Origin: Thermoproteota archaeon
GTDB lineage: Archaea > Korarchaeota > JAOZGF01 > JAOZFZ01
Length of the DNA stretch: 64,000 bases
Reading direction: 5' to 3'
NCBI GenBank assembly: GCA_027492035.1
Contig: JAOZFT010000035.1
Span: 64,001 to 128,000, forward strand
Shown here one piece after another: positions 1 to 23,781 of this stretch (positions are counted from its first letter, which is position 1; each line of letters opens with the position of its first letter). The translations under genes were made by a program, and so were the position numbers. Below the pieces are notes generated by a model that did not search any database, was not told the DNA's origin, and worked only from the letters and a program-made list of their open reading frames with translations.

Positions 1-742
1 TTTTAATTTTTCCTTTATTTACTAGTTCGATTAAGAAGGAAGTTATGTGTTTAATTCTCTTTTTTATTTTTAAACCGTATTTGGGATATATTTCTTTGAA
101 CGTGTAAGTACAGCTTGGACATAAAGTAATTATTTCCTTAACTTCTAAATTGTTTATTTCTTCAGCATTCACTTTCCCTATCTCTATAAACTCTTTTTTG
201 AACCCTGCTTGAAGTAAAGGTAAACCGCAACATTTCTCATGGACAGGTGAAGTCATGAACCCTGTTTTTGTTTTTCTTAAAAAATTGATTACAGCTTCCA
301 CTGTCTTGCCTCTAAATCTTGAGGCTGAACAACCTATATAGAGAAGTACTTCAGGTTTTCCTTCTTTCTCGCCTGCATACTTTTCAGAGTACTCCATTCC
401 GAAAAGGTTCATTTTTTCCGTTATTTCTTTTACTTGTTTCAAATAGAAGGGCACTAAATTATTTTCTCCAAGTTCCTCCTTTATTTTTCTCAACTCTTCC
501 CCCAAAGAAATGTTTAACGGACAAATTATTTGACAGGCTGAACATTCAGTGCAAAGGTAGAAAAGATTAACTGAGTTTGTGACGTCCAAAATCTTCTTTT
601 TAAGATATAAGTAAGCTACTCTAGCTTTTCCTGAAGGTGAAACTGTTTCTGTGTTTTTTGCAAGAAAAACTGGGCAATTTGCTCCGCAAATGTTTGGACA
701 GACTGAACAAATTAAAATGTTTCTGTATTTTCCTCTCCACAT
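1..742 (-). CDS. (Fe-S)-binding CCG-domain oxidoreductase (GlpC/GlcF/HdrD-like); runs off the window edge
   Basis: Absent from the ORF track. Manual translation from ATG at 742: MWRGKYRNILICSVCPNICGANCP...CTECSACQIICP...YIGC...EKCCG...CPSC, giving two 4Fe-4S motifs plus a CCG domain. The frame stays open to the window start. Confidence 0.88.
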   Translation of the reverse strand, partial: MWRGKYRNILICSVCPNICGANCPVFLAKNTETVSPSGKARVAYLYLKKKILDVTNSVNLFYLCTECSACQIICPLNISLGEELRKIKEELGENNLVPFYLKQVKEITEKMNLFGMEYSEKYAGEKEGKPEVLLYIGCSASRFRGKTVEAVINFLRKTKTGFMTSPVHEKCCGLPLLQAGFKKEFIEIGKVNAEEINNLEVKEIITLCPSCTYTFKEIYPKYGLKIKKRIKHITSFLIELVNKGKIK

Positions 743-777
743 ATTAATAATCCTTCTTTCAAATGTTTTCCAAAAAT

Positions 778-2229
778 TTAGATGAGTTTACCTGGATTCA
801 TTATTTCTGAGGAATCGAAAACTTCCTTTATTTTCTTTAGTAACCTATATGTTGATTCACCTATTTCTTCTTTTAACCACTTCTTTCTAAGTAGCCCTAT
901 TCCATGGTGGTGACTTATTGTTCCACCTGACTCTAAACATGCTTTCATGGCTTTGCTCCAGAAGTTAAAGTAGAAATCTTCAAGTTTAACGTCTTCCGGA
1001 GGTATCCCCCCTATTGTAAAGTAAAGACATGCTCCGTTAAGGTAGAAATGAGAAGCATGAGCTGAAGATAATAGTACCCCCTCTATGGAAGATATTTCTT
1101 TTTTCATTTTTCTATAAAGAGTAGGTATTTTGCTCCAAGTTGCAGCTACTTCAACTGTGTCAAAAACAACTTTCATTGGTAAATATTGGGAAATATCTGT
1201 TATGACATCGAATCTTTCATTCAGCCATTTTTTCACGGGTTCTTCGCCGCAATTTTTAGCTCCTTCATTTTTGCAGATTCTTTCGATTGCTTTCTTCTCC
1301 TGTCCAGTTATTTCCTTCATTCCCTCAACAATGAAAATACCTAACGACTCCCTATCCTCAGTAAAATCTTGAAATTTCAGCTCTGTCTCGTCTTCATCAT
1401 ATAAACGTATAACTGCAGGGTAAATCCCCTTTCTTAAAATCTTTCTTGCCGCTTCCAAACTTTCGGTGAAGCTTTTAAATTTAAAGGATAAAAGCTTTTT
1501 TTCCTCTGGTAAAGGCCAAATTTTAAGTGTTGCTTTAGTTATTACTCCTATTGTTCCTTCAGAGCCTAGAAATAATTTTTCAATTTCTGGGCCTGTGGAG
1601 GAAGCTGGTTTAATTTTGGAATTAATTATTTCGCCATTAGGTAAAACTGCTTCTAAACCTAAAACTAAATTTTCTATTTTCCCATATTTTGTTGAAAACT
1701 GTCCTGCAGCTTTAGTAGCTATCCATCCGCCTAATGTAGAAGCTGGGAGAGATTGAGGAATATGCCTGGAAGTGTATCCTCTAGAATTAAGTTTCTCTTC
1801 CAGTATTTTTCCGTTTATTCCAGCTTCAGCAGTGACTGTTAAGTCTAAATCATTTATTTCAATTATTTTGTTCATTTTTTTTAAATCTATAACTATTCCC
1901 CCTTTTAAAGGAACTACTCCCCCTGTAACGCTTGTTCCTCCTCCATAGGGGATCACAGGCACTTTTTCTTCCTTTGCTAACTTAAGGATTTCTGAAACTT
2001 GCTCAGTGTTAATGGGCCATGTGACGAAGTTAGGAAGTGAAGGCAAGTACCCCTTAAGAAACCATTGAAGAGAAATTGGCCAATAACCTCTTGAGTAAGA
2101 AATAAGGTCTATTTCTTTTTCAGAGAAGTTTTTTTCATCTAATATCTTAACAAGTTTTTTCTTGATTCTCCTCTTCTTTTCTTCTGGAAACTTGATTTTA
2201 CCTGTGTAAATTTCCTTGTAGTTATTCAT
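778..2229 (-). CDS. FAD-binding oxidoreductase, alkyl-dihydroxyacetonephosphate synthase-like (VAO/PCMH family)
   Basis: PYGGGTSVTGG and GSEGTIGVIT FAD motifs; PAVIRLYD, GACLYF and C-terminal ISHHHGIG as in ADHAPS. Confidence 0.85.
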   Translation of the reverse strand: MNNYKEIYTGKIKFPEEKKRRIKKKLVKILDEKNFSEKEIDLISYSRGYWPISLQWFLKGYLPSLPNFVTWPINTEQVSEILKLAKEEKVPVIPYGGGTSVTGGVVPLKGGIVIDLKKMNKIIEINDLDLTVTAEAGINGKILEEKLNSRGYTSRHIPQSLPASTLGGWIATKAAGQFSTKYGKIENLVLGLEAVLPNGEIINSKIKPASSTGPEIEKLFLGSEGTIGVITKATLKIWPLPEEKKLLSFKFKSFTESLEAARKILRKGIYPAVIRLYDEDETELKFQDFTEDRESLGIFIVEGMKEITGQEKKAIERICKNEGAKNCGEEPVKKWLNERFDVITDISQYLPMKVVFDTVEVAATWSKIPTLYRKMKKEISSIEGVLLSSAHASHFYLNGACLYFTIGGIPPEDVKLEDFYFNFWSKAMKACLESGGTISHHHGIGLLRKKWLKEEIGESTYRLLKKIKEVFDSSEIMNPGKLI

Positions 2230-3718
2230 TTTTGCTTAACCATTCCCTAGATCTTTCAACTGCCCTTTTCCAGTTTAAGTAAAGTGTTTCTATTTTTTTC
2301 TCTTCAATTCCTGGTTTAAACACCTTATCAACTTCTCTTCTTTCCGTTATTTCTTTAAGAGAATTGTAGATACCTGCTCCTAAACAGGCAAGATAAGCTG
2401 CACCCAAACTTGTAGCTTCCGAAACTTTAGTTCTCTCAACTTCCAAGTTTAAACAATCAGCCATAAATTGGGCAACAAAATTATTCTTGGAAACTCCCCC
2501 GTCCAGCCTTAACTTTTCAATTTTAAGTTTTAAATCCTTTTCCATAACTTCCACGATATCCTTTACTCTGTAAACTATTGACTCCAGAACAGCTCTAACT
2601 ATATTTTCTCTGCTTATTTCTCTAGTTAAACCTATCAGTAACCCGCGTGCGTAAGAATCCCAGTAAGGGGAAGATAAACCTGTGAAAGCAGGTACAAAAT
2701 AAACTCCTTTGTTGCTTCCAGCTTTAAAAGCCAGTTTTTCTGATTCATCAACTTCCTTAATGATTTTCAAGTTATCTTTTAACCAAAGAACAGCTTCACC
2801 TGCCACATATGAGTAACCTTCAACCATAAAAAATGTTTTGCCGTTTATTTTCCAAGCCACTAAAGGAACTAGGCCGTGGCCGGGGATTTTAAACTTTCTT
2901 CCTATGTTGACATCTACAAACCCTCCTGAGCCTAAAGTGCATTTTGTGTCTCCCTTACTGAAACATGCTTCACCGAAAAGGGCTGATTGCTGATCCCCTG
3001 TAGCAGAAATTATCTCTAAAGGTTCTCCAAAAAATGATTTATCTACGTAGCCAAATCCTCCATTGGTTTCCCTTATTTCAGGAAGTATTTCTGAAGGAAT
3101 TCCAAACATTTCAAGTAAATCTTCCCACCAAGTAAGTTCAAAATAATCAAACATTCCTGTAGAGCTTGCGTTTGAAAAATCTGTAGCGTGAATTTTCCCT
3201 TTAGTTAATCTCCAAATAATGTATGTGTCTATTGTGCCGAAAATTATTTTTCCATTTTTGATTTTCTCTCTTATATCATTAACGTTTTCAATTAACCACT
3301 TAATGTACATTGAGGAAAGGGAAGGGTTAAATATTCTCTGAAGCTCTTCAGGCATTTCTTCACCGTATTCCCTCTTCATTTCAGCACTTAACTGAGAAGT
3401 TCTTGTATCCATCCAAGTTAAAGCGTTATATACAGGTAATCCCTTATCCTTATCCCAAAGTATCGTAGTTAATCTCTGGTTAGTAACAGCTAAACCTTTA
3501 ACTTCACTTACTTCAACTTTGCTCTTAACCAAAACCTTCTTTAAAACTTTTAAACTTTTTTTAAAAATTGTTTCAGGGTCTTGTTCGACCCAGCCGGGTT
3601 TAGGGTGTTTCAAAGGAAGTTTCTCAGAAACTGAAGCTAGAAAACCTTTCTCTTCATCGTAAACGAATGCCTTTACGTTTCTTGTCCCTTCATCTAAAAT
3701 TAAAATATATTTTTCCAA
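2222..3718 (-). CDS. glpK: FGGY-family glycerol kinase (atypical substrate site)
   Basis: PKPGWVEQDP, TNQR, FGTIDTY, TDFSNASSTG, GDQQSALFG, VYFVPAFTGL and DGG motifs. Confidence 0.85.
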   Translation of the reverse strand: MEKYILILDEGTRNVKAFVYDEEKGFLASVSEKLPLKHPKPGWVEQDPETIFKKSLKVLKKVLVKSKVEVSEVKGLAVTNQRLTTILWDKDKGLPVYNALTWMDTRTSQLSAEMKREYGEEMPEELQRIFNPSLSSMYIKWLIENVNDIREKIKNGKIIFGTIDTYIIWRLTKGKIHATDFSNASSTGMFDYFELTWWEDLLEMFGIPSEILPEIRETNGGFGYVDKSFFGEPLEIISATGDQQSALFGEACFSKGDTKCTLGSGGFVDVNIGRKFKIPGHGLVPLVAWKINGKTFFMVEGYSYVAGEAVLWLKDNLKIIKEVDESEKLAFKAGSNKGVYFVPAFTGLSSPYWDSYARGLLIGLTREISRENIVRAVLESIVYRVKDIVEVMEKDLKLKIEKLRLDGGVSKNNFVAQFMADCLNLEVERTKVSEATSLGAAYLACLGAGIYNSLKEITERREVDKVFKPGIEEKKIETLYLNWKRAVERSREWLSKNE

Positions 3719-3728
3719 TTTATTTTCC

Positions 3729-4088
3729 TCAAACCCTTTTAACTCTCCGTGAAGCTACAACTTTAACATTTTCAACTAAAAAATCCTTAATTATTACTTG
3801 TCCAGTTTTTACAGGTGCTTCAACTTCTACGTAAGCCAGCTTTTTCATTGCTTCCATCAAAACTTTTCTAGGCAGAGGTTTACTTGTTTTTATAGGTAAA
3901 AACTTTATTTCTCCATTCTTTACAGGTACAGTAGTAGTTAATATCCTAACAGGATTCAAAGCTTCTGTTTTTGCAAACTTTAAGCCTTTCTCACATTTAT
4001 TACCTTTAACTGACACTTCCCCCTTTTCAACTGTGATAACTACTTCACAGCCTACAGGACAAACTATACAAATGATTTTTTTCTTCAA
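3729..4088 (-). CDS. DUF1667 CxxC protein, small subunit of G3PDH-like complex
   Basis: CIVCPVGC...GNKCEKG...NPVRILTTTV; typical third gene of this trio. Confidence 0.85.
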   Translation of the reverse strand: MKKKIICIVCPVGCEVVITVEKGEVSVKGNKCEKGLKFAKTEALNPVRILTTTVPVKNGEIKFLPIKTSKPLPRKVLMEAMKKLAYVEVEAPVKTGQVIIKDFLVENVKVVASRRVKRV

Positions 4089-5332
4089 CTTTTCCTCACT
4101 AATTTAAAAGTTATTTTCTCACCTTTTATTTTTAGCAATTCCTCCCTTTTCAAATTTACTTTAACCATTTCATTTGGTTTAATTTTTTGGAAGTATTTTC
4201 TCCAATTTATTTCTTTAATTGAAAGAAAAACTTTTTCTTCAGGTTTCTTCACTCTTAAATAAAACGAAACGTCCTTTAAGCAAGTCACTCTTTGAGGAAC
4301 AACAAATTTTATTTTTTTGTTAAAAGAAACCTTTCTTTCTTCTGCTTTTTTCATTCCTTTTTTTAAGTAAAAATTCACTCCCTCAGCTGCGGTTTCAGCG
4401 TTTTCTACAACATAATCAACTAAATCAAATATTACTAAACTGTTTCCGCAAGAGAACAGAAAGGGAGCTGTTGTTTGGAAGTAGTCATTAACTACTGGCC
4501 CTAAAGTATTACTGTCCATTTCAATACCTATTTCACTAACTAATTCGTTTTCAGGTACTAATCCAACGGAAAAAATTACTGTGTCACATTTTATTTCTTT
4601 CTCGGTTCCTTTTAAAGGATTTAAGTTTTCATCCACTTTAACTATCTTAATTCTTTCCACTCTTTCCCTTCCTCTTATTTCTGTAGCTGCATGGCTTAAA
4701 TAAAGTGGTATGTTGAAGTCCTGAAGGCATTGAACAATGTTTCTTTGTAACCCTCCAGGGTAAGGCATTATTTCAATCACTCCTTTCACCTTAACTCCTT
4801 CCAATGTTAATCTTCTGGCCATAATTAACCCTACATCTCCTGAACCTATAATTACTGCTTCTTTCCCTGGAAGATAGCCTTCAATATTGATAAGTTTCTG
4901 AACTAAACCTGCTGTAAAAACTCCTGCTGGTCTGTCACCCGGAATTTTAACATCCCATCTTGTCTTCTCTCTAGCTCCAGTGGCTAAAATTACAGCTTTA
5001 GATTTTATTTTCATTACTCCCAATTTCTTGTTTACAGCTATAACTTCTCCTTTTCTACTTATTTTTAGGGCTGTTGTGTCAGTGAATGTTCCTATACCAA
5101 TTTCTTCAACTTTATCTATAAATCTTTGAATGAATTCAGGCCCTGTTAATTCTTCTTTGAAATATTTTAAACCGAAACCTGGATGTATACATTGAGGAAG
5201 TACACCCCCTAAATATTTCTCTCTTTCAATCACCACCTGGTTAGTTAAACCTAGTTTGTAAGCCTTAATTGAAGCAGCTAAACCTGCAGGACCTGAACCT
5301 ATAACCACTAAATCAACTTTCCTCTCAATCAT
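4085..5332 (-). CDS. NAD(P)/FAD-dependent oxidoreductase, partner subunit of G3PDH-like complex
   Basis: GSGPAG, LGGVLPQCIHPGFG, ELTGPEF, GSGDVGLIMARR. Confidence 0.88.
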   Translation of the reverse strand: MIERKVDLVVIGSGPAGLAASIKAYKLGLTNQVVIEREKYLGGVLPQCIHPGFGLKYFKEELTGPEFIQRFIDKVEEIGIGTFTDTTALKISRKGEVIAVNKKLGVMKIKSKAVILATGAREKTRWDVKIPGDRPAGVFTAGLVQKLINIEGYLPGKEAVIIGSGDVGLIMARRLTLEGVKVKGVIEIMPYPGGLQRNIVQCLQDFNIPLYLSHAATEIRGRERVERIKIVKVDENLNPLKGTEKEIKCDTVIFSVGLVPENELVSEIGIEMDSNTLGPVVNDYFQTTAPFLFSCGNSLVIFDLVDYVVENAETAAEGVNFYLKKGMKKAEERKVSFNKKIKFVVPQRVTCLKDVSFYLRVKKPEEKVFLSIKEINWRKYFQKIKPNEMVKVNLKREELLKIKGEKITFKLVRKS

Positions 5333-6805
5333 TCAGGCACCTTTCAAAAGCTCCTTTATTTTATATAGAAGAATCAATGATTTTCCTCCCTTTTTAGTTA
5401 TTTTCTTAACTGGGATTTTCAGTTCCCTGCTCAGTATCTCCAAAATTTTTGGTGTGCAGAAGCTTCCTTGGCACCTTCCCATCCCTGCCCTTGTTCTAAA
5501 TTTCACACCGTCCAAAGTTTTTGCTCCTCTTTTAATTGCTTCAACAACTTCAGCTTCAGTTACTTGTTCACATCTGCAAATTATTCTTCCGTAACCAGGG
5601 TTTTCCTTTATCATTTTATCTTGTTCTTCAGGAGGGTAATCAGTAAGTTTGTTTATTCTTTTTCTGTAAGGGTTAAAACTTCCCTTCCTTTCAAGTTTTA
5701 ATCCTTCCTTTCTCAGCAGCTCTGTAACCATTTTAGCTATTGCAGGTGCAGCTGTCAAGCCAGGAGACTGTATACCTGCAACGTTTATGAAACCTTTAAC
5801 TTTTGTTCTTTCAATTACGAAGTCTCCCTTTTCAGAAGCAGCTCTTACTCCTGCGAAGCAAGTTATTATTTTTAGGGGAAAGTCAGGAAACAAAACATTG
5901 TAAGTGTTAATTATCTCCTCTATATCCTTTCTAGACACTGAAGTATCTTCTTTACTTCCTGTTTCCTTTAGATTAGGTCCCCATAAGGGGTTCCCTTCAA
6001 CTGTTAATAAAGCCCCTCCTCCCTTTGTTCTTGGATCCTGCTTAATTTTAGCTTCTGCAACATAGTGTCTGTAATATCCTCTAAGTTTCTTATCAAAAAC
6101 AATCATGCACCCTTTCCTAGGAACTATTTTAAAGTTTCTTACACCGGCTGTTTCAGCTACTTCATCTGAATAAAGACCTGCAGCATTAACAACGTAACTT
6201 GTTTCAATTACTCCCTTATTTGTTTTTACTCCCTTAACTTCTCCATTCTCAACTAACACCTCCTCAACTTTTGTTCCGAGTAATGTTTTCACTCCGTTCT
6301 TTTGTGCATTTTCAATCAAGGCGAAAGTTAATTCATAAGGGGAAATAACTCCACCTGAAGGGAAAAGGAGTGCACACTTAGCTTTATTTGTTAAATTAGG
6401 TTCAACTTTCCTTAGCTCCCTTTTATTAAGAAACTTAACCTGTATCCCTCTCCATTTCATCACTAAATAAACCAAGAAAAGAAAAAATGTTTCTTTCCTG
6501 TTTAAAGAAACGAAAAGTAAACCACAACGATTAAAAGGAACATCTAGCTCCTCAGTTAACTTGTCCATTAATTTATTACCTTCAACACAAAGTTTTCCCT
6601 TCAAAGAATTAAAAGGGGTAACGAAAGGGTGGATAATGCCTGAACAACCCTTACTGGCGCCTTGGCAGAAATCAACTTCTTTTTCAACAACAACTACGTC
6701 CACTTTGTATTTAGAAAGCTCCCTAGCTATACTGCACCCTACAACTCCACCTCCAACTATTACAACATCTGTTTTTAAAGAAGGTTTCAAAAAAAATTTA
6801 GACAA
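5333..6805 (-). CDS. Glycerol-3-phosphate dehydrogenase-like FAD oxidoreductase with C-terminal BFD-like [2Fe-2S] domain
   Basis: GGGVVG, GIQSPGLTAAPAIA, CRCEQVT...RAGMGRCQGSFC; adjacent to the glycerol kinase. Confidence 0.87.
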   Translation of the reverse strand: MSKFFLKPSLKTDVVIVGGGVVGCSIARELSKYKVDVVVVEKEVDFCQGASKGCSGIIHPFVTPFNSLKGKLCVEGNKLMDKLTEELDVPFNRCGLLFVSLNRKETFFLFLVYLVMKWRGIQVKFLNKRELRKVEPNLTNKAKCALLFPSGGVISPYELTFALIENAQKNGVKTLLGTKVEEVLVENGEVKGVKTNKGVIETSYVVNAAGLYSDEVAETAGVRNFKIVPRKGCMIVFDKKLRGYYRHYVAEAKIKQDPRTKGGGALLTVEGNPLWGPNLKETGSKEDTSVSRKDIEEIINTYNVLFPDFPLKIITCFAGVRAASEKGDFVIERTKVKGFINVAGIQSPGLTAAPAIAKMVTELLRKEGLKLERKGSFNPYRKRINKLTDYPPEEQDKMIKENPGYGRIICRCEQVTEAEVVEAIKRGAKTLDGVKFRTRAGMGRCQGSFCTPKILEILSRELKIPVKKITKKGGKSLILLYKIKELLKGA

Positions 6806-6853
6806 AAAATCCCCCCTTAAAAAATTTTACGCTAACATTTCTCGCCAAGACCC

Positions 6854-6887
6854 AGTTTACACAGGTTTTGGTAAGCCTATGTAAACT
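6854..6887. promoter_or_regulatory. Imperfect 14-bp inverted repeat upstream of the glycerol operon (operator or leader hairpin candidate)
   Basis: AGTTTACACAGGTT-ttggta-AGCCTATGTAAACT, 12/14 complementary, about 50-80 nt upstream of the start at 6805. Confidence 0.4.
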
Positions 6888-8062
6888 TTGGTGTGCATCA
6901 GCCTCTTCTCCCTCCATTTCATTGGGAGTAAGTCATAGGTTCCGCACCCTTTCATGAAGCCTTTTCAGAGTTCTTATAGATGTGCCTTTCCGTCTTTCCA
7001 TAAACCTCACCAGTGGTCTCGAAACTAAATGGCAAAAGATGCTTGGACTCTAGGAGCCTACATCCCCTAAAATATATACCTACTACTCTAAATAACTGTC
7101 TATCGAGTGTAGCCTACATCTGGAGGTGCTTAACCACCTATCCCTTTTCGAAGCTTCATTAACATGTATCTACACACATATTTTTTAATGTAAGGTTAAA
7201 TTATTTCTAAAAAGGTTTTACATGGCTTATTTTCCTCAATAAGGATTTTAGAAGAGATTTTCAGTTCCTTTTCTCTGTCTCAGATTGCTTTTAATATTAA
7301 AATAGTTTTTTATAACGTTTTTACTATGTTCTAAAACTCCTAATTTATGTTTTACAGTCCTTATACGTAAATGCTTATGCGATTTCTTTCTTAAATCTAA
7401 TGCTTTCTGGTTGGTAAAAACCCTGCAGAAGATCTATTTAGTGTCTTTTCACAATTTTTTTGGCTTTCTTAAGAATGAACAAAGTATTTTATGGTTAACA
7501 AGCTTTACCCTGGATTCGTAGCTCATGAACTGGGCTATTGCCTTTCAGTTCTGTTTAGCAATGCCCTTATTATGTTTCTTTCCTTTGGTGTACCTTCCTA
7601 CTTCTCTAAATTCTTAAAACCGTGTCCAATATCAGAAATAATCTAAACATTAACCACATAATTTAATGTAGAAAGTCTCTAACCCTCGCCTCTTTCCCTT
7701 CCTACCTGCTTCTGAATAATCTTAATATCTTTCCATCTTTTTACTTACTAAGTATTACATTCGCTTAATAAATATTCGCAGTTTCATCTAATTTGTTTTC
7801 TGAACAGGTTAAAAGTAAAAAACCAGGTTAAAAAAGGAATTTATAGAAAAAGAAACGTTGCTGATGCTTTTCTTAAAAAAATTGAAAAATTTCCTGATCT
7901 GAAAATGTAAAAAAGCCAATAAAGACAACTCTGTCACTCTTCAGTTAAACAATTTAAAAAGAGAAACCGCAAAGATTTCTTGTTCAGAGGAACTGTTCAG
8001 GTAGAAAAGGAGGAATTCCTGGGTAGGAATTAAAAATAGTTTTAGGTTAAAAAAAGAAAAAA

Positions 8063-8776
8063 TTACCTCATGTATGAAGCAATCGTTTTTATCCCATGTT
8101 TATTGGCTTCCTTCTCAGCTGAAGGGTGAATAAGAAATCCAAACATGAATTTGTATACTTCTTTACCTTCAAACAGCCTACTTATTTTATTTAACTTCAA
8201 CAAGAACTCCCTTACATCTCTTCCATAAATCCTAGACTTAATTTCGCCCAATATGTAAATGTTTCTTTGTCTCCTCATCCCCTCACCGTAAAGGTTCACC
8301 TCTACAATTTCACCATCCACTTCAAAAAACTTTCTTACGAGACCCTTCACATAAATTTTTTCATGTCTCTCAAGCCAACCTGGAACAACAACTCTTGCAA
8401 TGTCTTCAAGGCCGAAACCTATAACATCACTCAATCTACCCACACTTAATGATAAATTATTCATTTGAATAGCTAATTTTGCAACAGCTTCTTCTGTTTT
8501 CTTTTGTGCTTCTGCTAATTCATTTACTCTTTCAGTTAATTTATCTACTCTTTCAGTTAATTTTGCAACAGCTTCTTCTGTTTTCTTTTGTGCTTCTGCT
8601 AATTCATTTACTCTTGTTGCTAGCCTGTCCAGATTTTCTGCGATTTTCGTTACTTCATTTGATAACTTATCAAACTCTTCTCTCCTAACTTTTATATCTT
8701 TCACTTCGTCTTTTACTATTTTAACAATCAGGCTGTAAAGCTCAGGTGACAAAGACATGTTCATCAACTGAAACAA
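8063..8776 (-). CDS. Coiled-coil protein with C-terminal PD-(D/E)xK-type nuclease-like domain (DUF1626/DUF3782-like)
   Basis: Heptad repeats RVNELAEAQKKTEEAVAKL x2, then GFGLED and EVNLYG...LGEIKSRI. Confidence 0.75.
   Translation of the reverse strand: MFQLMNMSLSPELYSLIVKIVKDEVKDIKVRREEFDKLSNEVTKIAENLDRLATRVNELAEAQKKTEEAVAKLTERVDKLTERVNELAEAQKKTEEAVAKLAIQMNNLSLSVGRLSDVIGFGLEDIARVVVPGWLERHEKIYVKGLVRKFFEVDGEIVEVNLYGEGMRRQRNIYILGEIKSRIYGRDVREFLLKLNKISRLFEGKEVYKFMFGFLIHPSAEKEANKHGIKTIASYMR
8474..8615. repeat. Intragenic exact direct repeat, 58 nt x2, period 84 nt (four heptads)
   Basis: taattttgcaacagc...tttactctt occurs at 8474-8531 and 8558-8615. Confidence 0.9.
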
Positions 8777-10660: not shown

Positions 10661-11491
10661 TTATCCTTTATAAATGAATATTTCTCCTTTACCTAACTCT
10701 GAAACATCACCATGGTAACGTTCATAAAGGCCTTCAACTTTAACAGGGACTCTAATATTTAGTTTCTCTCTCAACTCCTTGAAATAGTACCTTATAAACA
10801 GAGGGGAATATGTGTTGTCGTAAATAAATGTAGGAAGCATTTCCTGTATTTTACCGAAACAAATTATTGTTCCTCTTTTCATCAGCATTCCTGGCCTGTT
10901 TCCAATATTCCCTAAACTTATAACTGTGCCTGCTATCATCTGGGCTGCCAGGTTATCTCCTACACTGTCATAAACAATTATTGTTCCTCTTCTCATTTTC
11001 CTAGCTAAACTGTTTCCAGCTTTACCTTCAATCACTATTATTCCGCCTCTCATCCCTCTAGGGTTTCCAGGGTAGGCTGAAGCAAACATGTTCCCAACGT
11101 TGCCCTTAATCCGTAATATGCCATTCCTAAACTCTGTTGCAGACCAATCTGACACGTTTCCCTCTACAACTATTTCTCCTCCTCTCATCTCATCGGCTAA
11201 GTGCATGCCTGCGTTTCCTTTAACCGTAATTTTTCCAGTAGCCATTTGTTTCCCAATATACTTAACCTTGGATAAATCCCCTTTCAAAATTATGTGGGTT
11301 TCTGAAACTTCTTCAGATTTTTCACCTTCAACCTTAAAGTAATCCCCTAATTCCTCTTTTCTCTTCCCTCTCCAAACTATTAATTTCTTGATTTCGTCCA
11401 GGGTCCTGCCTGCAAAATTTTCAGGTGTAATTGTTTCGGCTTCAATAGGTAGTGCAGGTTCCTTCTTAAGGGTTAAAATTATTTTCTTCAT
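10661..11491 (-). CDS. fwdC: Formylmethanofuran dehydrogenase subunit C
   Basis: GXGXG beta-helix repeats, GMRGG, GDVSELGKGEI. Confidence 0.93.
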   Translation of the reverse strand: MKKIILTLKKEPALPIEAETITPENFAGRTLDEIKKLIVWRGKRKEELGDYFKVEGEKSEEVSETHIILKGDLSKVKYIGKQMATGKITVKGNAGMHLADEMRGGEIVVEGNVSDWSATEFRNGILRIKGNVGNMFASAYPGNPRGMRGGIIVIEGKAGNSLARKMRRGTIIVYDSVGDNLAAQMIAGTVISLGNIGNRPGMLMKRGTIICFGKIQEMLPTFIYDNTYSPLFIRYYFKELREKLNIRVPVKVEGLYERYHGDVSELGKGEIFIYKG

Positions 11492-11510
11492 TTCTCACTC
11501 CCTCCAAGAA

Positions 11511-12425
11511 TCAAAAACAATCCTTTAATTTTATACTGTACTGTCCCAGTTTCCCTCCGTAATTGGCAGCAGTAATCATTTTCACTCCTTCAACCTGTGT
11601 AGCAGCTTCAATTCCAACTTTCATGGCCTCCTTAACAGCTTCGAGCGATAAACCGTCAATAACAATTTCAAATATTGAAGCAACCCCTTCAGGCACTCTT
11701 GTTCCTTCCACCATCCCCTTTATTGATGGGCAAAAGGCTGTATTGGTTGAAGCGTGTAAAAACTTATACTTGGAGCCCACTTTGCTTCCGCTTCTGCAAA
11801 CCCCGCCAGGGAATGGGGTAACTGCATCCTCGACTCCAGCAATTGCTTCAACAGCTTTCTCTGAGGCCTTAAGAGCTGACTCAACCGTTTCACCAAGTAT
11901 TAAAAAGTTTCCTCCACCAACACTCTTTTTAGCCTTGAATTTTTCTTCTAAGAAGAACTCCCCCTCCATTACAGGGATCCTCCAAAGTCTCCTACCAAAA
12001 ATTTTCTTACTTATCTGGTAACCATCACCAAAAAACCTTAACTGAGCACCAATTTTAAACTCGGTATCTCCCACACCTAACCAATCATAGGCTGCAGTAG
12101 TAGGACACGTTAAAACAGTCTGTCCAATTCTTCTCATCAATTGATCCTTCAACTGTTTCTTGGTGTTTGCAAACACTAAAACACTGACACCAGGCCTTCC
12201 GTCAGGTGTTTCACTTGGCGGAACAACTTTTTCGATTGCAACTTCACCTCCGCACATAATTACTGACGTTCCAAAACCACTCATGGACCGTGCTGAATTC
12301 ATAGCCCATCTCTCGTTTATTGCAGTAATTAATACTTTGCTTCCCCACATTTTAAAGGCTTCAGCAAACGTATCCTTAACCTTTACTCCATTTACTTCAA
12401 AAAAAGAGTCTGCAGGCATCGTCAC
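11511..12425 (-). CDS. ftr: Formylmethanofuran:tetrahydromethanopterin formyltransferase
   Basis: DTFAEAF, TPDGRPG, RIGQTVLTCPTT, SGSKVGSKY, NYGGKLG. Confidence 0.95.
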   Translation of the reverse strand: MTMPADSFFEVNGVKVKDTFAEAFKMWGSKVLITAINERWAMNSARSMSGFGTSVIMCGGEVAIEKVVPPSETPDGRPGVSVLVFANTKKQLKDQLMRRIGQTVLTCPTTAAYDWLGVGDTEFKIGAQLRFFGDGYQISKKIFGRRLWRIPVMEGEFFLEEKFKAKKSVGGGNFLILGETVESALKASEKAVEAIAGVEDAVTPFPGGVCRSGSKVGSKYKFLHASTNTAFCPSIKGMVEGTRVPEGVASIFEIVIDGLSLEAVKEAMKVGIEAATQVEGVKMITAANYGGKLGQYSIKLKDCF

Positions 12426-12619
12426 TTCCTCCTCATACCTTTTTTAAAGTCAGGAAACCACCTTGCTTTTATATATATATTTGTGTTTTTGTTTACACAT
12501 CCCACTTATATTTTTTTCTTTATATTTAGTTCATAACCCGAATGTTTCTAACCCTTACCTTAACTCCCCTTCAAGCATTACCCTCTTTAAAGATAGTCCA
12601 ATGTTTTCACCGTCTTTTT

Positions 12620-12775
12620 CCACTTTTTTGGAAGGGTTGCGAGTGGCTTTTTTTAGAGGACACTGTGAAGCATCTACGTGGAAGATTTTAAAAACATGTT
12701 CCAGCAGCAACCAAGTATCCACCTGCCACAAAACCGCATTCTTTACAACAACATAAACTTCTGTTCGGTTATTTA
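12620..12775 (-). mobile_element. Probable degenerate IS200/IS605 tnpB 3' remnant
   Basis: Minus strand reads PNRSLCCCKECGFVAGGYLVAA, then after a frameshift WNMFLK. This resembles the TnpB C-terminal CxxCG..DRD..AAxNI motif. Boundaries are approximate. Confidence 0.4.
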
Positions 12776-12870
12776 GTTTCTAAAAAGAAAAGAAGAAGTT
12801 CATTAATTTTCCCAGTATTTTTAAGGCTGTTGTTAACCCTTTCTGTAACTTTGTTTATCCACTAGAGTCT

Positions 12871-14565
12871 TCACTTTACTTCTATTTTTATTGGTTTGTT
12901 GTTTGGTAAATAAGTTAAGGGCACTTCAAAATTACTTAAACTCACTGTGTAGTAGTCCCGAAAAACTTTTTCCAAATCTTCCCTTAACTCTTCATCTTCA
13001 GTGTACTGGAAATTTGTCCAATAAGTTTTGCCATAAACTTCTTTAACCACTTCCCCATCCTTTACAACCACTTCTCCATCCTTTATAGTGTAAGCGGCCC
13101 TTGAAAAAGCTTTAATGATTTCATTGTAATTACCCCTATCCAGTTTTTCAGGGTTCAAATTGTAAATTGCAACGTCAGCGTCTGCTCCAACCCCTAAGTG
13201 GCCTTTCTCACTTAAACCTAGAGCCTTAGCTGTCCCAGCCCTTGTGCAAACAGCAACTTCGAACAGGCTATACTCTCTATCTATACTTGCTAACTGGGTC
13301 CTTGAATGCACAACTTTATGCACCTTCTGAATCATCTCTTCTCGGGCTTTCCTGCTCATCAACCAAGCTATAATTAAGGGGTAAAAAGTGAAAGGCCCTC
13401 CATTTGGGTGATCGGTTCCAATAAAGACTTTCCATGGTTCTTTAGTTAAAAGCATCAACTCCAGCCCTATAGCCCACTGAATGGTATTTACCGGGTTCTT
13501 CTTTTTGAAAATGTAAGGCACTATACCGCCGCTTGTTTCTAGCTCTGTATCTGCACCCGCCCATTTATTCTTTGTTAACAAATATAACCTGTATTGCCAT
13601 GGTCCGTCGCTTGTTATTGTTGTAGTGTTTGTGAATATAACTTGACCTATGCAAGTTGTAATGTGGCCATGTTTATTTAAGTATTCAGCTATTTCTGCTG
13701 CTCCTGAGCTGAAGTTGCCCCAGTTTTCTCCTGCGTAACTGTTGAATTGTGAATGAGCTATATGGAGTACATTCTTTCTTCCCTTTTTAGGTTTTATCCC
13801 TTCAACTGCTTTCATTGTTTCCAATGTTACTTCATAGTTTCCTGGTGAACCTAAGTTGTTACAGTGCACATGGTTTGTGTGAGGAAAATTTAGTTCTTCA
13901 TTCACTTTAGTTAGGTTTGTAACTATATCTCGGGGGGTTATGTCATACCCCTTTACTTTATCATCTAAGTTGTTTACATTCTTACCCCATTTCCATGTCT
14001 CTTGTCCCCCAGGGTTTACTACCTTTAATGAGTACCCTTTCACTGTTTTTAAAAGCCAGGCTATGAAATGTTTCAATTTCTCGTATTCTCCTTCCTTTAT
14101 GTATTTCAGTACAAAGTAGTTGTTTCCTACGCAAACGAATATTCCTTTATCTATCATTGGTGTATCTATTAGTTCCTCGTGTGCATGTTTTGCTTCTAAA
14201 GGTGTAACTGCTGGTTCGAAAACTGTCGTATAACCCATGGCTGAGTATCTATATCCTGTAACAAATGTTGACGGTAAAGAGTACCCTACTCCGCTTCTTG
14301 TGACGCTTGTTTTAGGTACAGGATCTGTTCTGTGGTCTTCTGGTCTAAACACTCTAGCTGAATTTAGTTTCCCTGCTATATGGCTATGGATATCTACTCC
14401 TCCAGGCATCACTGTTTTCCCTTCTGCATTTATTATTTCTGTACTGTTTCCAGTGAATTCTTCAACTATTTTGCCGTTTTCAATGTATATGTCCATTTTT
14501 TCTCCGTTGATTTTGTTTATGGGGTCGTAAACATATCCGTTCTTTATTATCATCCTACTTTTCAT
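12871..14565 (-). CDS. fwdA: Formylmethanofuran dehydrogenase subunit A (amidohydrolase)
   Basis: PGGVDIHSHIAG, KVVNPGG, HVHCNNLG, TDHPNGGPF. Confidence 0.96.
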   Translation of the reverse strand: MKSRMIIKNGYVYDPINKINGEKMDIYIENGKIVEEFTGNSTEIINAEGKTVMPGGVDIHSHIAGKLNSARVFRPEDHRTDPVPKTSVTRSGVGYSLPSTFVTGYRYSAMGYTTVFEPAVTPLEAKHAHEELIDTPMIDKGIFVCVGNNYFVLKYIKEGEYEKLKHFIAWLLKTVKGYSLKVVNPGGQETWKWGKNVNNLDDKVKGYDITPRDIVTNLTKVNEELNFPHTNHVHCNNLGSPGNYEVTLETMKAVEGIKPKKGRKNVLHIAHSQFNSYAGENWGNFSSGAAEIAEYLNKHGHITTCIGQVIFTNTTTITSDGPWQYRLYLLTKNKWAGADTELETSGGIVPYIFKKKNPVNTIQWAIGLELMLLTKEPWKVFIGTDHPNGGPFTFYPLIIAWLMSRKAREEMIQKVHKVVHSRTQLASIDREYSLFEVAVCTRAGTAKALGLSEKGHLGVGADADVAIYNLNPEKLDRGNYNEIIKAFSRAAYTIKDGEVVVKDGEVVKEVYGKTYWTNFQYTEDEELREDLEKVFRDYYTVSLSNFEVPLTYLPNNKPIKIEVK

Positions 14566-14589
14566 TTTTCTCTTCTCCTCCCCTTCATC

Positions 14590-15882
14590 TTAAATTCTTT
14601 TCAATATCTTTTCCATTATTTCTTCATCTGGCAGTACTCCTTCTTTCGGCTCTATTAGTTTTTTCAGCCTTATCGGTACCCCATCCATTCTATAAGCTGT
14701 TCCTTCTGTTTCTATCCCTGCTAAAGCGCAAGGTATAACTACGTCAGCTGTTAAAGAGGTCATACTTATTTTCGGGTCAACAACTATTGTGGGTATCTGT
14801 GTTAAATACTTGGCTGCTGGTGAAGGGAACGTTGCAACAGGATCTGACGCCACTATCAACGCTGCATCTACCTCTCTGTTTACTAGTAAATTTACTGCCG
14901 CGTATTCTCCCGGGTTATATCTTGGGTACCCTCTTGTAAAGTCTACGGCGTATGGATACCCTGTTTGCCAAGCTAAAACCATCCCTGCCCCTTTAACATT
15001 GAAATGTCCCCTCATAGGTATTACAACAAATCTTGTGTATTTATGTAAGTCTCTTACAAGGTTAAGCGTCGCTATTATGTTATAGTGTTTTCCTCTACTC
15101 ATTGTTAACCCAAGTCCGAAAAATATTACTCCATACCTACAGTTCTTCATTTTCTCCACAAGTTCCTTTATTTTATTCATTGAGACTCCTGCAACTTCTT
15201 CTGCATTTATTTTAGCTCCATTTACCAATGCCCTGATTACTGATAGAAGTTCAAAGTCTTTTCCTGGAGTTATTTTTAGGAACATGTCCGCTAATTTAGT
15301 TGTTCTCGTCTCCCTTACATCAACCGCTACAATGTATCTTTCTTTTCTCCCCTTTTCTGTGTACATTCCTTTCGGAAAAACCGAATACCTTACAAAATGG
15401 TTTAAGTGAGCTTGTAAGGGGTTGCATCCCCAGAAAATAACTAAGTCTGACCTGTTTTTTATCTCTCCAAGGGTTGCATGGATTTCGCCGGTTTCTTGGA
15501 AAGCTACAACTGTAGGGGCATGGCAGACAGTGGCTGTTTGGTCAATTATTCCCCCCGTTTTTTCAGCTATTTCCACGCATTTTCTTTGTGTTTCACAAGT
15601 TGTTGAACTTAAACCATAAATTAAGGGTCTGTCAGCATTCCTTAATATTTCAGCAGCTTTCTTTATGCTTTCTTCTAAGCTCACCCTTTCATGTTTCCCG
15701 TTAATTTTCATCATTGGGTAAGGTACTCTGTCTCTGTTATAATTTACAAACCTGCTTCTTGAAACTGTACAAGCTTTACTTAACGGCCTTATTTCTCCGT
15801 TTTCAACTTCGATTTCCAAGTTGTCGCACAGGCAGCCGCAAAATGAACAAACTACATCTTTAAACACTTGCTTCATTTTCAT
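14590..15882 (-). CDS. fwdB: Formylmethanofuran dehydrogenase subunit B (Mo/W-bisPGD)
   Basis: CSFCGCLCD 4Fe-4S motif, TVCH metal-ligand Cys, MRGHFNV, GTAYRMD. Confidence 0.95.
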   Translation of the reverse strand: MKMKQVFKDVVCSFCGCLCDNLEIEVENGEIRPLSKACTVSRSRFVNYNRDRVPYPMMKINGKHERVSLEESIKKAAEILRNADRPLIYGLSSTTCETQRKCVEIAEKTGGIIDQTATVCHAPTVVAFQETGEIHATLGEIKNRSDLVIFWGCNPLQAHLNHFVRYSVFPKGMYTEKGRKERYIVAVDVRETRTTKLADMFLKITPGKDFELLSVIRALVNGAKINAEEVAGVSMNKIKELVEKMKNCRYGVIFFGLGLTMSRGKHYNIIATLNLVRDLHKYTRFVVIPMRGHFNVKGAGMVLAWQTGYPYAVDFTRGYPRYNPGEYAAVNLLVNREVDAALIVASDPVATFPSPAAKYLTQIPTIVVDPKISMTSLTADVVIPCALAGIETEGTAYRMDGVPIRLKKLIEPKEGVLPDEEIMEKILKRI

Positions 15883-15897
15883 TAAACACCTTCCTCT

Positions 15898-16296
15898 TTA
15901 TTCATAGCCCTCAACTATTTCCTGAATAGTGAGAATTCTTTCACCTGATGCTTTATACACTTTAGCCTTTATTCCTTTAAAGGAAGGCATACTTATTCCT
16001 TCCGTATCCACGGGTGAAATTAAACTTGTCCAGGGACCGTAAGGCATGAAGATGATTCCGCGATCTATTTCCCTTGAAGCTTTACATTTCACAGCCACGG
16101 AACCGTACTCTGTTTCAACTTTCACAGTGTCTCCTTCCTTTACATTTATCTCACTCATGTCCTGTTGATTCATTTGGACAGTTGACAAGTGTTCAAAGTA
16201 TTCCTTTGAAGTTTTACCTATCTCTAAGGTTTCTCCTTGTTTATCTGTCCTCCCAGTTATCAAAACAGCTTCTAACTTCTTCATTTGATTCACCAT
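15898..16296 (-). CDS. fwdD: Formylmethanofuran dehydrogenase subunit D
   Basis: LITGRT..QG, FMPYGPW, MPSFKGI. Confidence 0.92.
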   Translation of the reverse strand: MVNQMKKLEAVLITGRTDKQGETLEIGKTSKEYFEHLSTVQMNQQDMSEINVKEGDTVKVETEYGSVAVKCKASREIDRGIIFMPYGPWTSLISPVDTEGISMPSFKGIKAKVYKASGERILTIQEIVEGYE

Positions 16297-16314
16297 CCAG
16301 ATCTTAGAGGAAAA

Positions 16315-16331
16315 AAGGTTTTACAAACCTT
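16315..16331. promoter_or_regulatory. Perfect palindrome just upstream of fwdD (operator candidate)
   Basis: AAGGTTT-TAC-AAACCTT, 19-35 nt upstream of the fwdD start. Confidence 0.35.
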
Positions 16332-16547
16332 CTCCTTAACGCGATTCCATTTTCAGCAGCTTATTCCCTAAACAAACTAAAATTTAAGTTAGATCTACTT
16401 TGCATGGGAACTTAAAAGCTTAAAAAATTTTACTTAATTTTCTTAACTCAGTCTTTCTTAATGGAATTTTTCCCAAACTTGTTCTTTGCTGGTATGTACT
16501 GGTAGATTAAGGTATTTCACCACAAATTACGTCTTGAAAGGTAATGA

Positions 16548-17531
16548 TTAAAGGAAGCTTATTGATTTCTTTATTGCTTCAGGATTTATTTTTCCTGCCC
16601 TGTAAACTTTGCCGTTCGCTTTGTTGAAAACTGTAATGGATGCTGGAGCGAAGAGGCTGACGTCCAGTTTGTAAAAATCGAAACCTGCTGCCTTATATGC
16701 TTCATAAAACAGTTTGCCATAGTCCTTTGATGTTGATGAGGGAGCTTTCTCCATTATGTCCCTCAACTTATCTTCATCAGAATAGTTTAGGATGTATTGG
16801 GTTTCTCCGCCATAGGAGAGTGAATCATTCCCCCTACTCATTGATTTTGTCGGGTCAGGATGGGTAGGCATTACAGGAGCTGAACCTGTCCCATGTAAAA
16901 CAGTTAAGGGGTCTAAACCCAAGAAATCAAGCCTGTAAAGGCCCGTTTCAACTATTCTCCCAGCTATCTGGGTTAAACCTGTTATACTTTTGTTTGAAAC
17001 AAGCACAAAATAAATGTTTTCGGGTTTAACATCACATTTCTCCTTAATAAGTTCAACAACTTGTTCATCAGGTTTCTTCTCAGTTTCAAGTACAAGTATT
17101 GCCACATCTGCTTCATCTTGATAGCCCAGTTTCTTAAAAAGCTTTTTCGGTTTCAAGGAAAGAGCTCGGGCAGGACCGGATCCTACGGCTGAAAAATTCT
17201 CTGTTTTAATGTTCCAGCCTGCAAGTTGGGAGGCAAGTAAAGCAATTGCTGGGTAATCAGTTAAAACATGAACAGTTGGAAGAGTTAATCCTCCGAAGTT
17301 TTTCTCGAAAAGTGAAGCCTTCCCAAGTCCACCTAAACATATTTCAGTCACTTTCAACCCTGTTAAATAACCCCCTTTTGCTTCAACACCGGCATCAATA
17401 ATTGTTGCTCCACTTCCAAGTTTCTCAACATACACATTAAAAAGGGAAGGGTTGTTAAGTATTTCTCTAACTATTTTAAGAGCTTCTTGGTTAACACTCA
17501 CTTTCTCCATCCTTTTCACCTTTAGAGCCAA
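16548..17531 (-). CDS. mch: Methenyltetrahydromethanopterin cyclohydrolase
   Basis: SQLAGW, GSGPARAL, GRIVETG, YGG, FYKLDVSLFAPA. Confidence 0.95.
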   Translation of the reverse strand: MALKVKRMEKVSVNQEALKIVREILNNPSLFNVYVEKLGSGATIIDAGVEAKGGYLTGLKVTEICLGGLGKASLFEKNFGGLTLPTVHVLTDYPAIALLASQLAGWNIKTENFSAVGSGPARALSLKPKKLFKKLGYQDEADVAILVLETEKKPDEQVVELIKEKCDVKPENIYFVLVSNKSITGLTQIAGRIVETGLYRLDFLGLDPLTVLHGTGSAPVMPTHPDPTKSMSRGNDSLSYGGETQYILNYSDEDKLRDIMEKAPSSTSKDYGKLFYEAYKAAGFDFYKLDVSLFAPASITVFNKANGKVYRAGKINPEAIKKSISFL

Positions 17532-17551
17532 GGAAAAGAGAAAAGGTTTTT

Positions 17552-18391
17552 TTAGGTTTTTTCAGCCCTAGGCTTCTCAATTAATTTCCTTTTCATCAAA
17601 ATTGTTCCGTCATCATAATGGGGTCTTCTCTGTACACTATCACCATACTTCTCTATCTCCCTTGCTTCATCAGCTAACTTCCCAGCAAACCTCATCAATT
17701 CATGAGCTGCTGAAACAATTAAAGTATACTTTTTCCAATCCTTTTCAATAAAGCACCCCTTAACAGTTAAGTCAGCAACTTTTTCAGCCATAATGTAGGC
17801 TGCGTAAGCCTTTGATTCGGCATAGGGATTTATGAAACCTGCCTTCTTCAATGCTTTGTTAACCCTAACCTTTATTTTTGGCGGCTCAGGTTTCTTCCCT
17901 TGCTTAACTTCATCAATCATTCTATCTATTTCCTCATAGATTAAGTTAAGAACTCCTGTAATAGCTAAAACCTTGATTAAGTCGGTGTTGTAAAGACTCA
18001 TTTCCACAGGGTCTAGAAACTCCCTCCTAGCCCCTATCATCGAATCAGCTGAAACAAAAACATACCCTGCACCCATATCCTCGAATTCCTCAATAGCTTT
18101 CTCAGCTGGTTTATCAGAAACAACAACTACAGGAATCCCTGAATCAATAAGTTTCTTAACAGCCCCTTTAGGCCCTTTTAAAGCTGCGTTAGGTGAGGTT
18201 AGTATACAGAAGTCAGGTTTAGCTTCAATCATTAGAGGAACGTTTGCATCCACCCAATCCTTGGTGATTTTCGAACCTGTACCTATAGTCACTGTCTGAA
18301 TATCTTGCCTTTCAGCCCGTTCGTCAAGTAAAAACTCAATCAAAGCTGCTGAACCCAAACTGCCCAGTTTCATAAAACCGACTTTAACCAT
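17552..18391 (-). CDS. mtd: F420-dependent methylenetetrahydromethanopterin dehydrogenase
   Basis: LDERAERQDI, SPNAALKGP, DSMIGARREFLDPVEM, AAHELMR. Start moved to ATG 18391 (MVKVGFMKLG); the ORF-track N-terminal extension looks non-coding. Confidence 0.94.
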   Translation of the reverse strand: MVKVGFMKLGSLGSAALIEFLLDERAERQDIQTVTIGTGSKITKDWVDANVPLMIEAKPDFCILTSPNAALKGPKGAVKKLIDSGIPVVVVSDKPAEKAIEEFEDMGAGYVFVSADSMIGARREFLDPVEMSLYNTDLIKVLAITGVLNLIYEEIDRMIDEVKQGKKPEPPKIKVRVNKALKKAGFINPYAESKAYAAYIMAEKVADLTVKGCFIEKDWKKYTLIVSAAHELMRFAGKLADEAREIEKYGDSVQRRPHYDDGTILMKRKLIEKPRAEKT

Positions 18392-18516
18392 TTCAAAACA
18401 CCTATTGTTTGAGGGGGAAGAATTGAAAATAAAAATCCTTTCCCTTTTTAAATTTTTTATTTGTTCAATTAAGAATGAAAGAAAAAAAGTCATTCCGTTG
18501 GTAAATTTAAAAGGGA

Positions 18517-23745: not shown

Positions 23746-23781
23746 TTACAACCTCTCCCTTTTTTCTTTTTTGAATTTCTT

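Follow-up and report, generated by a model that had tools for sequence, protein, structure and literature searches.

The enzymes closest to the genes described here come from two settings. For alkyldihydroxyacetonephosphate synthase (AGPS), excerpts of PMC3509576 describe a reaction without net redox change, residues R352, Y508 and R447 of the Dictyostelium enzyme that mutagenesis has shown to be catalytic, and an extra domain, said there to be confined to ADPS, whose helix acts as gate-keeper. In glycerol catabolism, a section of PMC11962113 describes a three-gene type of glycerol-3-phosphate (G3P) dehydrogenase ('GlpTk' with NOX and MOX) and cites Koga 2019 for complex formation of this Thermococcus-type enzyme. 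According to extracts of PMC3245297, glycerol kinase (GlpK) owes its specificity to residues R83, E84, Y135, D245 and F270, four of which hydrogen-bond the glycerol hydroxyls; a passage of PMC2680290 agrees on the glycerol contacts and assigns the phosphoryl-acceptor hydroxyl to Asp. Relatives of all three meet in a six-gene operon of a korarchaeotal genome (GCA_027492035.1, here G000), at the beginning of a 64,000-nucleotide stretch of contig JAOZFT010000035.1 that is called the window below (G000:C38:64001-128000). We propose, with a probability of roughly one in two, that the six genes form a catabolic operon in which a flavin/Fe–S dehydrogenase, coupled to a kinase, oxidises the phosphate of a glycerol-like polyol while a trio of G3P dehydrogenase subunits works alongside.

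The flavoprotein of the operon (P0001) has AGPS as its nearest solved relative. Its best matches are guinea-pig AGPS (229 bits, E = 8e-67), Dictyostelium AGPS (211 bits) and mouse D-lactate dehydrogenase (LDHD, 156 bits), and Foldseek, run on an AlphaFold model built from 20 sequences (pLDDT 83.4), ranks AGPS first (E = 1e-40, TMq 0.85–0.88, 29–32% identity) and mouse LDHD second (E = 3e-34, TMq 0.82, TMt 0.87). The flavoprotein is therefore nearer to AGPS than to GlcD and D-lactate dehydrogenases, as was expected in an earlier note on this DNA, which had been made from the sequence alone. That note had also named counterparts of the catalytic Arg, Tyr and HHH of AGPS, and these are indeed present in the 483-residue translation: PAVIRLYD, GACLYF and SHHHGIG align with PASIRLMD, GACIYF and SHHHGVG of the guinea-pig enzyme, so that the three sites correspond to R419, Y578 and H615–617 there and to R352 and Y508 in Dictyostelium. 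They are invariant in all 20 archaeal homologues and kept in 136 of 151 sequences (P0001 and the 150 best representatives at 50% identity). The likeness in sequence and fold and the invariance among archaeal homologues both speak for the route set out in the earlier note. Spelled out in full, this route would start with a glycerol that bears an alkyl, acyl or glycosyl substituent at O-1 and is phosphorylated by the kinase; the trio or the flavoprotein would oxidise the product to a substituted dihydroxyacetone phosphate (DHAP), the flavoprotein would break the C–O bond through AGPS-type enolisation and a flavin-N5 adduct to give the alcohol and DHAP, and the CCG subunit would re-oxidise the flavin.

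Other features of P0001 count against this ether-cleavage route. The N-terminal gating domain, found only in AGPS, is absent from the sequence alignment: 59 residues precede the FAD domain, compared with 95–104 in true-AGPS representatives, and the alignment starts at residue 175 of the guinea-pig and 132 of the Dictyostelium enzyme, which correspond to residues 35 and 60 of P0001. An internal insertion of about 26 residues in AGPS is also missing, and in place of the second catalytic Arg (R447 in Dictyostelium, motif PY[LIF]RD) the alignment has I346. Only 4 of the 150 representatives combine this motif with the insertion and an N-terminal extension of at least 95 residues; P0218, from the true-AGPS clade, scores 354 bits against Dictyostelium AGPS (2uuu), from residue 74 on.

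A phylogeny, which the earlier note had suggested as a check, separates P0001 from these four. The tree (FastTree LG+gamma, 488 profile columns, 168 tips) comprises 148 representatives (of the 150, two were excluded because they fall short of 440 residues), 14 archaeal homologues, four bacterial proteins, P0001 and its paralogue in the same genome, and true AGPS was recognised in it by motif, N-terminal extension and score to PDB entries. Against three GlcD-like outgroups, the R-Y-HHH sequences group together in one clade (support 0.96). A clade of its own (support 1.0), nested among short forms, comprises the four true-AGPS tips; P0001 falls outside it, in a separate clade of 26 tips (support 0.98) that also holds a CCG-fused protein from Bacillota. 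Judged by its sequence, P0001 is not a true AGPS, and it is more likely a dehydrogenase than an ether-lipid enzyme; its interpretation as an enzyme of the alkyl-DHAP synthase type fails on the gating domain, the insertion and the second catalytic Arg. Its sequence instead puts it in a large uncharacterised family of YgcU type (2,263 representatives at E <= 1e-30); the ESM Atlas offers only the name 'FAD-binding oxidoreductase family protein'. P0001 has the traits of the short form of this family, namely a length of about 460–500 residues, the R-Y-HHH set and a gene next to those of an electron carrier and an FGGY kinase. In one large subgroup (P0126, P0130, P0165 and others), the proteins reach 800–1000 residues, with an insertion of 35–90 residues and a second, degenerate FAD_binding_4 domain in tandem.

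The electron carrier is a dedicated partner of the flavoprotein. We sampled the 80 best of 239 related loci, all of them archaeal, which span Thermoplasmatota, Theionarchaea, Methanolliviera, Bathyarchaeota and Asgard groups. The gene for an Fe–S protein with CCG domains directly follows the flavoprotein gene in 79 of these, and the contig ends in the 80th. The two proteins are fused in P0128 (894 residues, from a cluster named 'FAD-binding and (Fe-S)-binding domain-containing protein [Bacillota bacterium]'). The CCG proteins have the architecture of GlpC, GlcF and HdrD, a 4Fe–4S dicluster followed by two CCG domains, with Cys columns that are invariant in 18 of 18 sequences. Structure prediction of the flavoprotein–CCG pair gave an ipSAE of 0.90, compared with 0.01 for the best control, and the mark applied is reached by 58 of 80 solved complexes and by 2 of 110 mismatched pairs. 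Three runs share at least 95% of their contacts, with a partner pLDDT of at least 87, and the interface lies between Cys-rich residues 10–76 of the CCG protein and the FAD domain plus residues 338–351 of the flavoprotein. The models thus predict that the two proteins bind each other. In Escherichia coli K-12, Enterococcus raffinosus and Ilyobacter polytropus, ETF genes replace the CCG gene; in Mesorhizobium and Microbacterium, the protein encoded after the flavoprotein homologue has no Pfam family, and no CCG partner is shown there. Because the flavoprotein has a dedicated electron carrier and the AGPS reaction is redox-neutral, we argue that the flavoprotein is a dehydrogenase. A redox-neutral exchange of AGPS type sits badly with a partner that appears obligate from gene order, fusion and predicted binding, which point to net redox chemistry, and the ether-cleavage route loses weight on the same grounds. 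Most CCG orthologues (L007, L012, L025 and others) carry an N-terminal extension of 40–50 residues (..KKY.W....L.K..) that the 373-residue protein of the window lacks.

A kinase gene completes the conserved group. An FGGY kinase is encoded in 63 of the 80 loci overall. Where the sequence continues for at least 2 kb beyond the CCG gene, 60 of 61 loci have it, and the remaining one breaks off at the expected place of the kinase; where it continues for at least 6.5 kb, all 48 loci have it. The association of flavoprotein, CCG protein and kinase is far above chance, and the neighbourhood that the earlier note had wanted to see tested for conservation is conserved for both partners. The kinase is GlpK-like in 26 loci; 37 have only an FGGY kinase of unassigned subfamily, to which the XylB, LsrK and GntK models give about 245 bits, all below their cut-offs. 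All five partners are present in 15 loci, in the order flavoprotein–CCG–GlpA-like–NOX–DUF1667–kinase, which differs from the order in the window. In L018 and L029 a NOX gene comes right after the CCG gene and no GlpA-like gene was found (the L018 contig ends inside NOX), which hints that the GlpA-like subunit may be replaceable by the AGPS-like pair. The flavoprotein family also includes fusions to a PfkB kinase (P0191) and to an HAD phosphatase (P0210). Two further genes recur in 37–38 closely related loci of Asgard type, one for an alpha/beta-hydrolase after the FGGY kinase (L021:14280-15122) and the other, before the flavoprotein gene (L021:8334-9827), for a 498-residue protein without a Pfam family (P0284).

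The linkage extends to bacteria. An FGGY kinase is encoded within a few genes of the flavoprotein homologue in all seven contexts inspected (Paracoccus, Microbacterium, E. raffinosus, Bacillus thuringiensis, Ilyobacter, Mesorhizobium and E. coli K-12), a non-random set picked from plasmid matches plus one known E. coli locus. Regulators (LacI/RpiR), short-chain dehydrogenases/reductases (SDRs) and sugar-type transporters are frequent in these contexts, which have the look of sugar or polyol operons; this suggests polar substrates. The E. coli, Enterococcus, Bacillus and Paracoccus modules among such genes are further evidence against ether cleavage, as is the consideration that a soluble FGGY kinase is unlikely to handle long-chain lipids.

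The kinase itself departs from glycerol kinases at the sites that contact glycerol. It passes the GlpK subfamily model NF000756 (552.9, cut-off 498) and fails the equivalog model TIGR01311 (536.4, cut-off 590.35), and its best solved relative is the glycerol kinase of Thermococcus kodakarensis (2zf5, 478 bits). Where GlpK has R-E-Y-D-F, the window kinase has R-L-S-D-F, so that two of the five specificity residues, E84 and Y135, are missing. Both are missing in each of the 28 GlpK-like kinases that are linked to the flavoprotein (window, Microbacterium and 26 archaeal loci), in which S, A or L replaces E84 and A, V, S, E or D replaces Y135. E. coli GlpK is canonical, and so are 98 of the 119 best database homologues, whatever their context, the other 21 being variant. 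A midpoint-rooted tree of 148 tips gathers 99 canonical sequences in one clade and leaves all 49 variants outside it, with the window kinase on a long branch beside the canonical clade. Given the loss of E84 and Y135, the sequence suggests that the substrate is probably something other than plain glycerol, in keeping with the doubt about plain glycerol catabolism voiced in the earlier note.

One alternative is ordinary glycerol catabolism. In spite of its signature, the kinase would then be a genuine glycerol kinase, and the flavoprotein–CCG pair would be either a second dehydrogenase for G3P (or sn-glycerol-1-phosphate, G1P) or the electron outlet of the trio. The NF000756 score agrees with this explanation, and the window kinase is the sole GlpK-like gene of the genome, the other FGGY gene being XylB-like. 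Microbacterium has the flavoprotein, GlpK and GlpD together, the GlpA-like gene appears to be replaced in L018 and L029, and the genome contains a GDPD gene. Nevertheless, we consider ordinary glycerol catabolism doubtful: all 28 linked kinases lack E84 and Y135 and lie outside the canonical GlpK clade, TIGR01311 is not reached, no MIP glycerol facilitator was found in the genome, and most Asgard loci have an FGGY kinase of unassigned subfamily.

The same pocket can be read in favour of ether cleavage. In the linked kinases, small residues replace E84 and Y135, which bind the glycerol hydroxyls other than the phosphoryl acceptor, and their loss would make room for a substituent. The alpha/beta-hydrolase gene after the kinase in 37 Asgard-type loci fits such a route too, as do the genes for an aldehyde dehydrogenase, an acyl-CoA ligase and an acyl-CoA dehydrogenase 14–18 kb from the operon in the window. 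A PlsC/GNPAT-type acyltransferase (PF01553), by contrast, has no match in the 93%-complete genome. The ether-cleavage route is chemically coherent and overall possible, but with the missing gating domain, the replaced Arg, the position in the tree and the redox partner we hold it to be unlikely. Its widest form is an O2-independent pathway for O-substituted glycerols, in which a widened GlpK relative would be followed by flavin/Fe–S oxidation and AGPS-type flavin-N5 C–O cleavage. A prokaryotic ancestor of the eukaryotic ether-lipid synthase would then run in reverse and recycle the glycerol of lipids or glycosides in sediment archaea; this we regard as slightly less likely again.

The resemblance to LDHD raises a third alternative, a 2-hydroxy-acid dehydrogenase of D-lactate/glycolate type (GlcD/GlcF-like) that would remove D-lactate formed from DHAP via methylglyoxal. 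Fold and size are those of mouse LDHD (TM 0.82/0.87), the GlcF/GlpC-like partner fits, and TIGR00387 glcD is the best NCBIfam match of P0001, although its score of 238.8 is far from the cut-off of 567.9. P0001 has HHHG in place of the GEHG motif of LDHD, and G400 occupies the position of LDHD H405; we take these LDHD residues to be metal ligands. The genome also encodes a separate flavoprotein with its own CCG protein, on contig C24 (L005:8298-9695, minus strand, and L005:9773-10990, plus strand, in divergent orientation). Besides P0001, only this paralogue in the genome has FAD_binding_4; it resembles LctD/D-LDH (143 bits to 7qh2_C compared with 95 bits), lacks the Arg, Tyr and HHH set and, from its sequence, is probably with its partner the real D-lactate or glycolate dehydrogenase of this genome. 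As the linkage and fusions to kinases would also be left without explanation, a 2-hydroxy-acid substrate is highly improbable for P0001.

We therefore return to a dehydrogenase for a glycerol-like polyol phosphate. In this scheme, the GlpK-related kinase with its altered sugar pocket would phosphorylate a glycerol-like polyol, probably not plain glycerol, and the YgcU-type flavoprotein would oxidise the product beside the phosphate-bearing carbon to a DHAP-like ketone, with the AGPS-like Arg/Tyr/HHH site as a putative binding site for the DHAP moiety. The FAD would hand its two electrons to the CCG subunit, at the ferredoxin-like domain, from where they would go to an acceptor that may be the NOX/DUF1667 pair; G3P, or a substrate of the same class, would be oxidised by the GlpA-like trio, and carbon would enter glycolysis as DHAP. 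The scheme is based on gene identities, close packing, the conserved triad, the fusions and the kinase signature, all of which are observed, and on binding that is predicted by models.

Several points weigh against this scheme. If both dehydrogenase modules act on G3P, the presence of two in a single operon has no explanation. Retention of Arg, Tyr and HHH in 136 of 151 sequences is unneeded for simple hydride transfer, and AGPS-like carbanion/N5 chemistry may be at work. Glycerol may still be the substrate of a kinase that passes the GlpK subfamily cut-off and has a true glycerol kinase as its best solved relative. Similarity to solved relatives may have contributed to the complex score, the flavoprotein tree has a weak backbone (support 0.0 where the window clade connects with the others), and the bacterial contexts were, as stated, a selected set.

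The arrangement of the operon is given in Table 1. Its six co-directional open reading frames lie on the minus strand in the first 6.8 kb of the window, with intergenic spacings of 0, −4, +10, −8 and +35 bases in the order of transcription. The open reading frame list and the Pfam matches agree with the earlier note's description of six packed genes, a G3P dehydrogenase-like trio, a kinase, an AGPS-like flavoprotein and a CCG protein. The complete CCG protein (373 residues, Fer4_8 and two CCG stretches) ends at G000:C38:63621, and as the gene beyond it is convergent, the operon ends there.

Table 1. Genes of the operon, in order of transcription (positions are those of the window)
Gene product	Position	Strand	Length	Domains and remarks
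GlpA-like FAD dehydrogenase with C-terminal BFD [2Fe-2S]	5333-6805	-	490 aa	Pfam DAO 230 bits, Fer2_BFD 59 bits; catalytic subunit of the trio
NOX-like pyridine-nucleotide-disulfide oxidoreductase	4085-5332	-	415 aa	Pfam Pyr_redox_2 107 bits; abuts the GlpA-like gene
DUF1667 protein, 'MOX' subunit	3729-4088	-	119 aa	Pfam DUF1667 92 bits; 4-base overlap with the NOX gene
GlpK-related FGGY kinase	2222-3718	-	498 aa	Pfam FGGY_N + FGGY_C; signature R-L-S-D-F
YgcU-type AGPS-like FAD-linked flavoprotein (P0001)	778-2229	-	483 aa	Pfam FAD_binding_4 + FAD-oxidase_C; R275, Y403, H440-442
GlcF/GlpC-like Fe-S subunit	2-742	-	N-terminal 247 codons	Pfam Fer4_8 + CCG; cut by the window edge

The first three genes, with DAO plus BFD, Pyr_redox_2 and DUF1667 domains side by side, have the arrangement of the Thermococcus-type G3P dehydrogenase. 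Among NCBIfam models, the GlpA-like protein is best matched by type 2 G3P oxidase (229 bits), followed by GlpA (168 bits), with neither cut-off reached. Upstream of the operon, about 1.25 kb (window 6806-8062) contain no open reading frame of at least 60 codons and have a G+C content of about 32%; no Rfam family matched the 2.5 kb upstream at E <= 0.1. The next gene (window 8063-8776) encodes a 237-residue protein in which a coiled-coil segment is repeated, as two stretches of about 25 residues that are nearly identical, and whose Pfam matches, all to coiled-coil families, are weak. Farther along, at window 20327-24939 and 14–18 kb from the operon, an aldehyde dehydrogenase, an acyl-CoA ligase of long-chain type (below cut-offs) and an acyl-CoA dehydrogenase are encoded consecutively, a gene row whose sequences suggest oxidation of fatty acids or fatty alcohols.

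The host is an uncultured archaeon with a tetrahydromethanopterin (H4MPT) pathway and the usual G1P route to ether lipids, and it is apparently not a methanogen. A C1 cluster on the minus strand of the window (10661-18562) encodes FwdC-like, Ftr, FwdA-like, FwdB-like, Mch and F420-dependent Mtd proteins of the H4MPT pathway. McrA was not found in the 93%-complete genome, and a methanogenic lifestyle was rejected on this ground. On contig C9 (G000 C9:226303-228051), a gene for PcrB/geranylgeranylglyceryl phosphate (GGGP) synthase adjoins an Fe-ADH_2 (G1P dehydrogenase-like) gene; since the genome has both, the synthetic, ether-lipid direction of the operon is not needed. Matches to the fatty acyl-CoA reductase family PF07993 are unspecific, being found in 14 of 14 control genomes as well. 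The distribution of the flavoprotein is patchy, as far as sequence matches indicate. The host class consists of three representative genomes, of which G000 alone has a close copy and one relative a match at 34% identity, so that vertical inheritance within the class is unsupported. In the host phylum, 8 of 43 genomes have the flavoprotein at E <= 1e-100 (44–49% identity), and the best homologues from metagenomes and Thermoplasmatota are more similar (53–56%) than these relatives.

These results matter for how such proteins are named. Thousands of prokaryotic proteins carry the database label 'alkyl-DHAP synthase', and JGI names the proteins studied here 'alkyldihydroxyacetonephosphate synthase'. 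A passage of PMC11868695 remarks on Agps matches in archaeal metagenome-assembled genomes as a surprise; a study of the origin of plasmalogens kept only AGPS of 500–700 residues and saw no evidence of the pathway in Archaea; and a section of PMC11383801 places alkyl-DHAP synthase among the ether-lipid enzymes of its reconstruction of LUCA, the last universal common ancestor. In a full-text literature search, with supplements outside its scope, we found no description of the flavoprotein–CCG–kinase triad or of the kinase signature, nor any work on the function of the ygc cluster, of YgcU or of AGPS-like proteins from Archaea ('ygcU' led for the most part to an RNA motif). Our analysis sets apart a small true-AGPS clade, to which 4 of the 150 best representatives belong, from the very many short forms that have Fe–S or ETF partners and links to kinases. 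If the short forms are polyol-phosphate dehydrogenases, then ether-lipid synthesis inferred from annotation would be unsafe for Archaea, for the Asgard groups that are related to eukaryotes and for LUCA alike, and AGPS would have branched off, as a derived form, from a family of dehydrogenases. In the co-varying signature of the kinases there is a concrete, testable handle on a catabolic pathway that sediment archaea and the ygc genes of E. coli would have in common.

The operon can be compared with several described systems. With AGPS (EC 2.5.1.26; PDB 4bby, 2uuu), its flavoprotein shares the FAD_binding_4 plus FAD-oxidase_C fold (PCMH-type FAD-binding domain and cap), the catalytic Arg and Tyr and the HHH loop. 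The pairing of a flavoprotein with a 4Fe–4S/CCG electron-transfer subunit recalls GlcDEF glycolate oxidase, CCG-coupled D-lactate dehydrogenase and GlpC of GlpABC, whereas the HHHG motif in place of GEHG, the scores below family cut-offs and the linkage to a kinase distinguish P0001 from GlcDEF and D-lactate dehydrogenase. The three adjacent genes beside a GlpK-family kinase are those of Thermococcus GlpTk–NOX–MOX; in the window, however, they come together with the AGPS-like/CCG pair, and E84 and Y135, at which T. kodakarensis GlpK (2zf5) is canonical, are both absent from the kinase. A further related system is the ygc cluster of E. coli K-12, whose YgcU (b4463, 484 residues) is 32% identical to P0001 over 457 residues, keeps Arg, Tyr and HHH and is encoded in the same cluster as an FGGY kinase (YgcE). 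That cluster differs in having ETF (YgcQR) and FixCX-like proteins where the archaeon has a CCG subunit, in a kinase of another FGGY subfamily (21% identity to the window kinase) and in having no counterpart of the GlpA-like trio.

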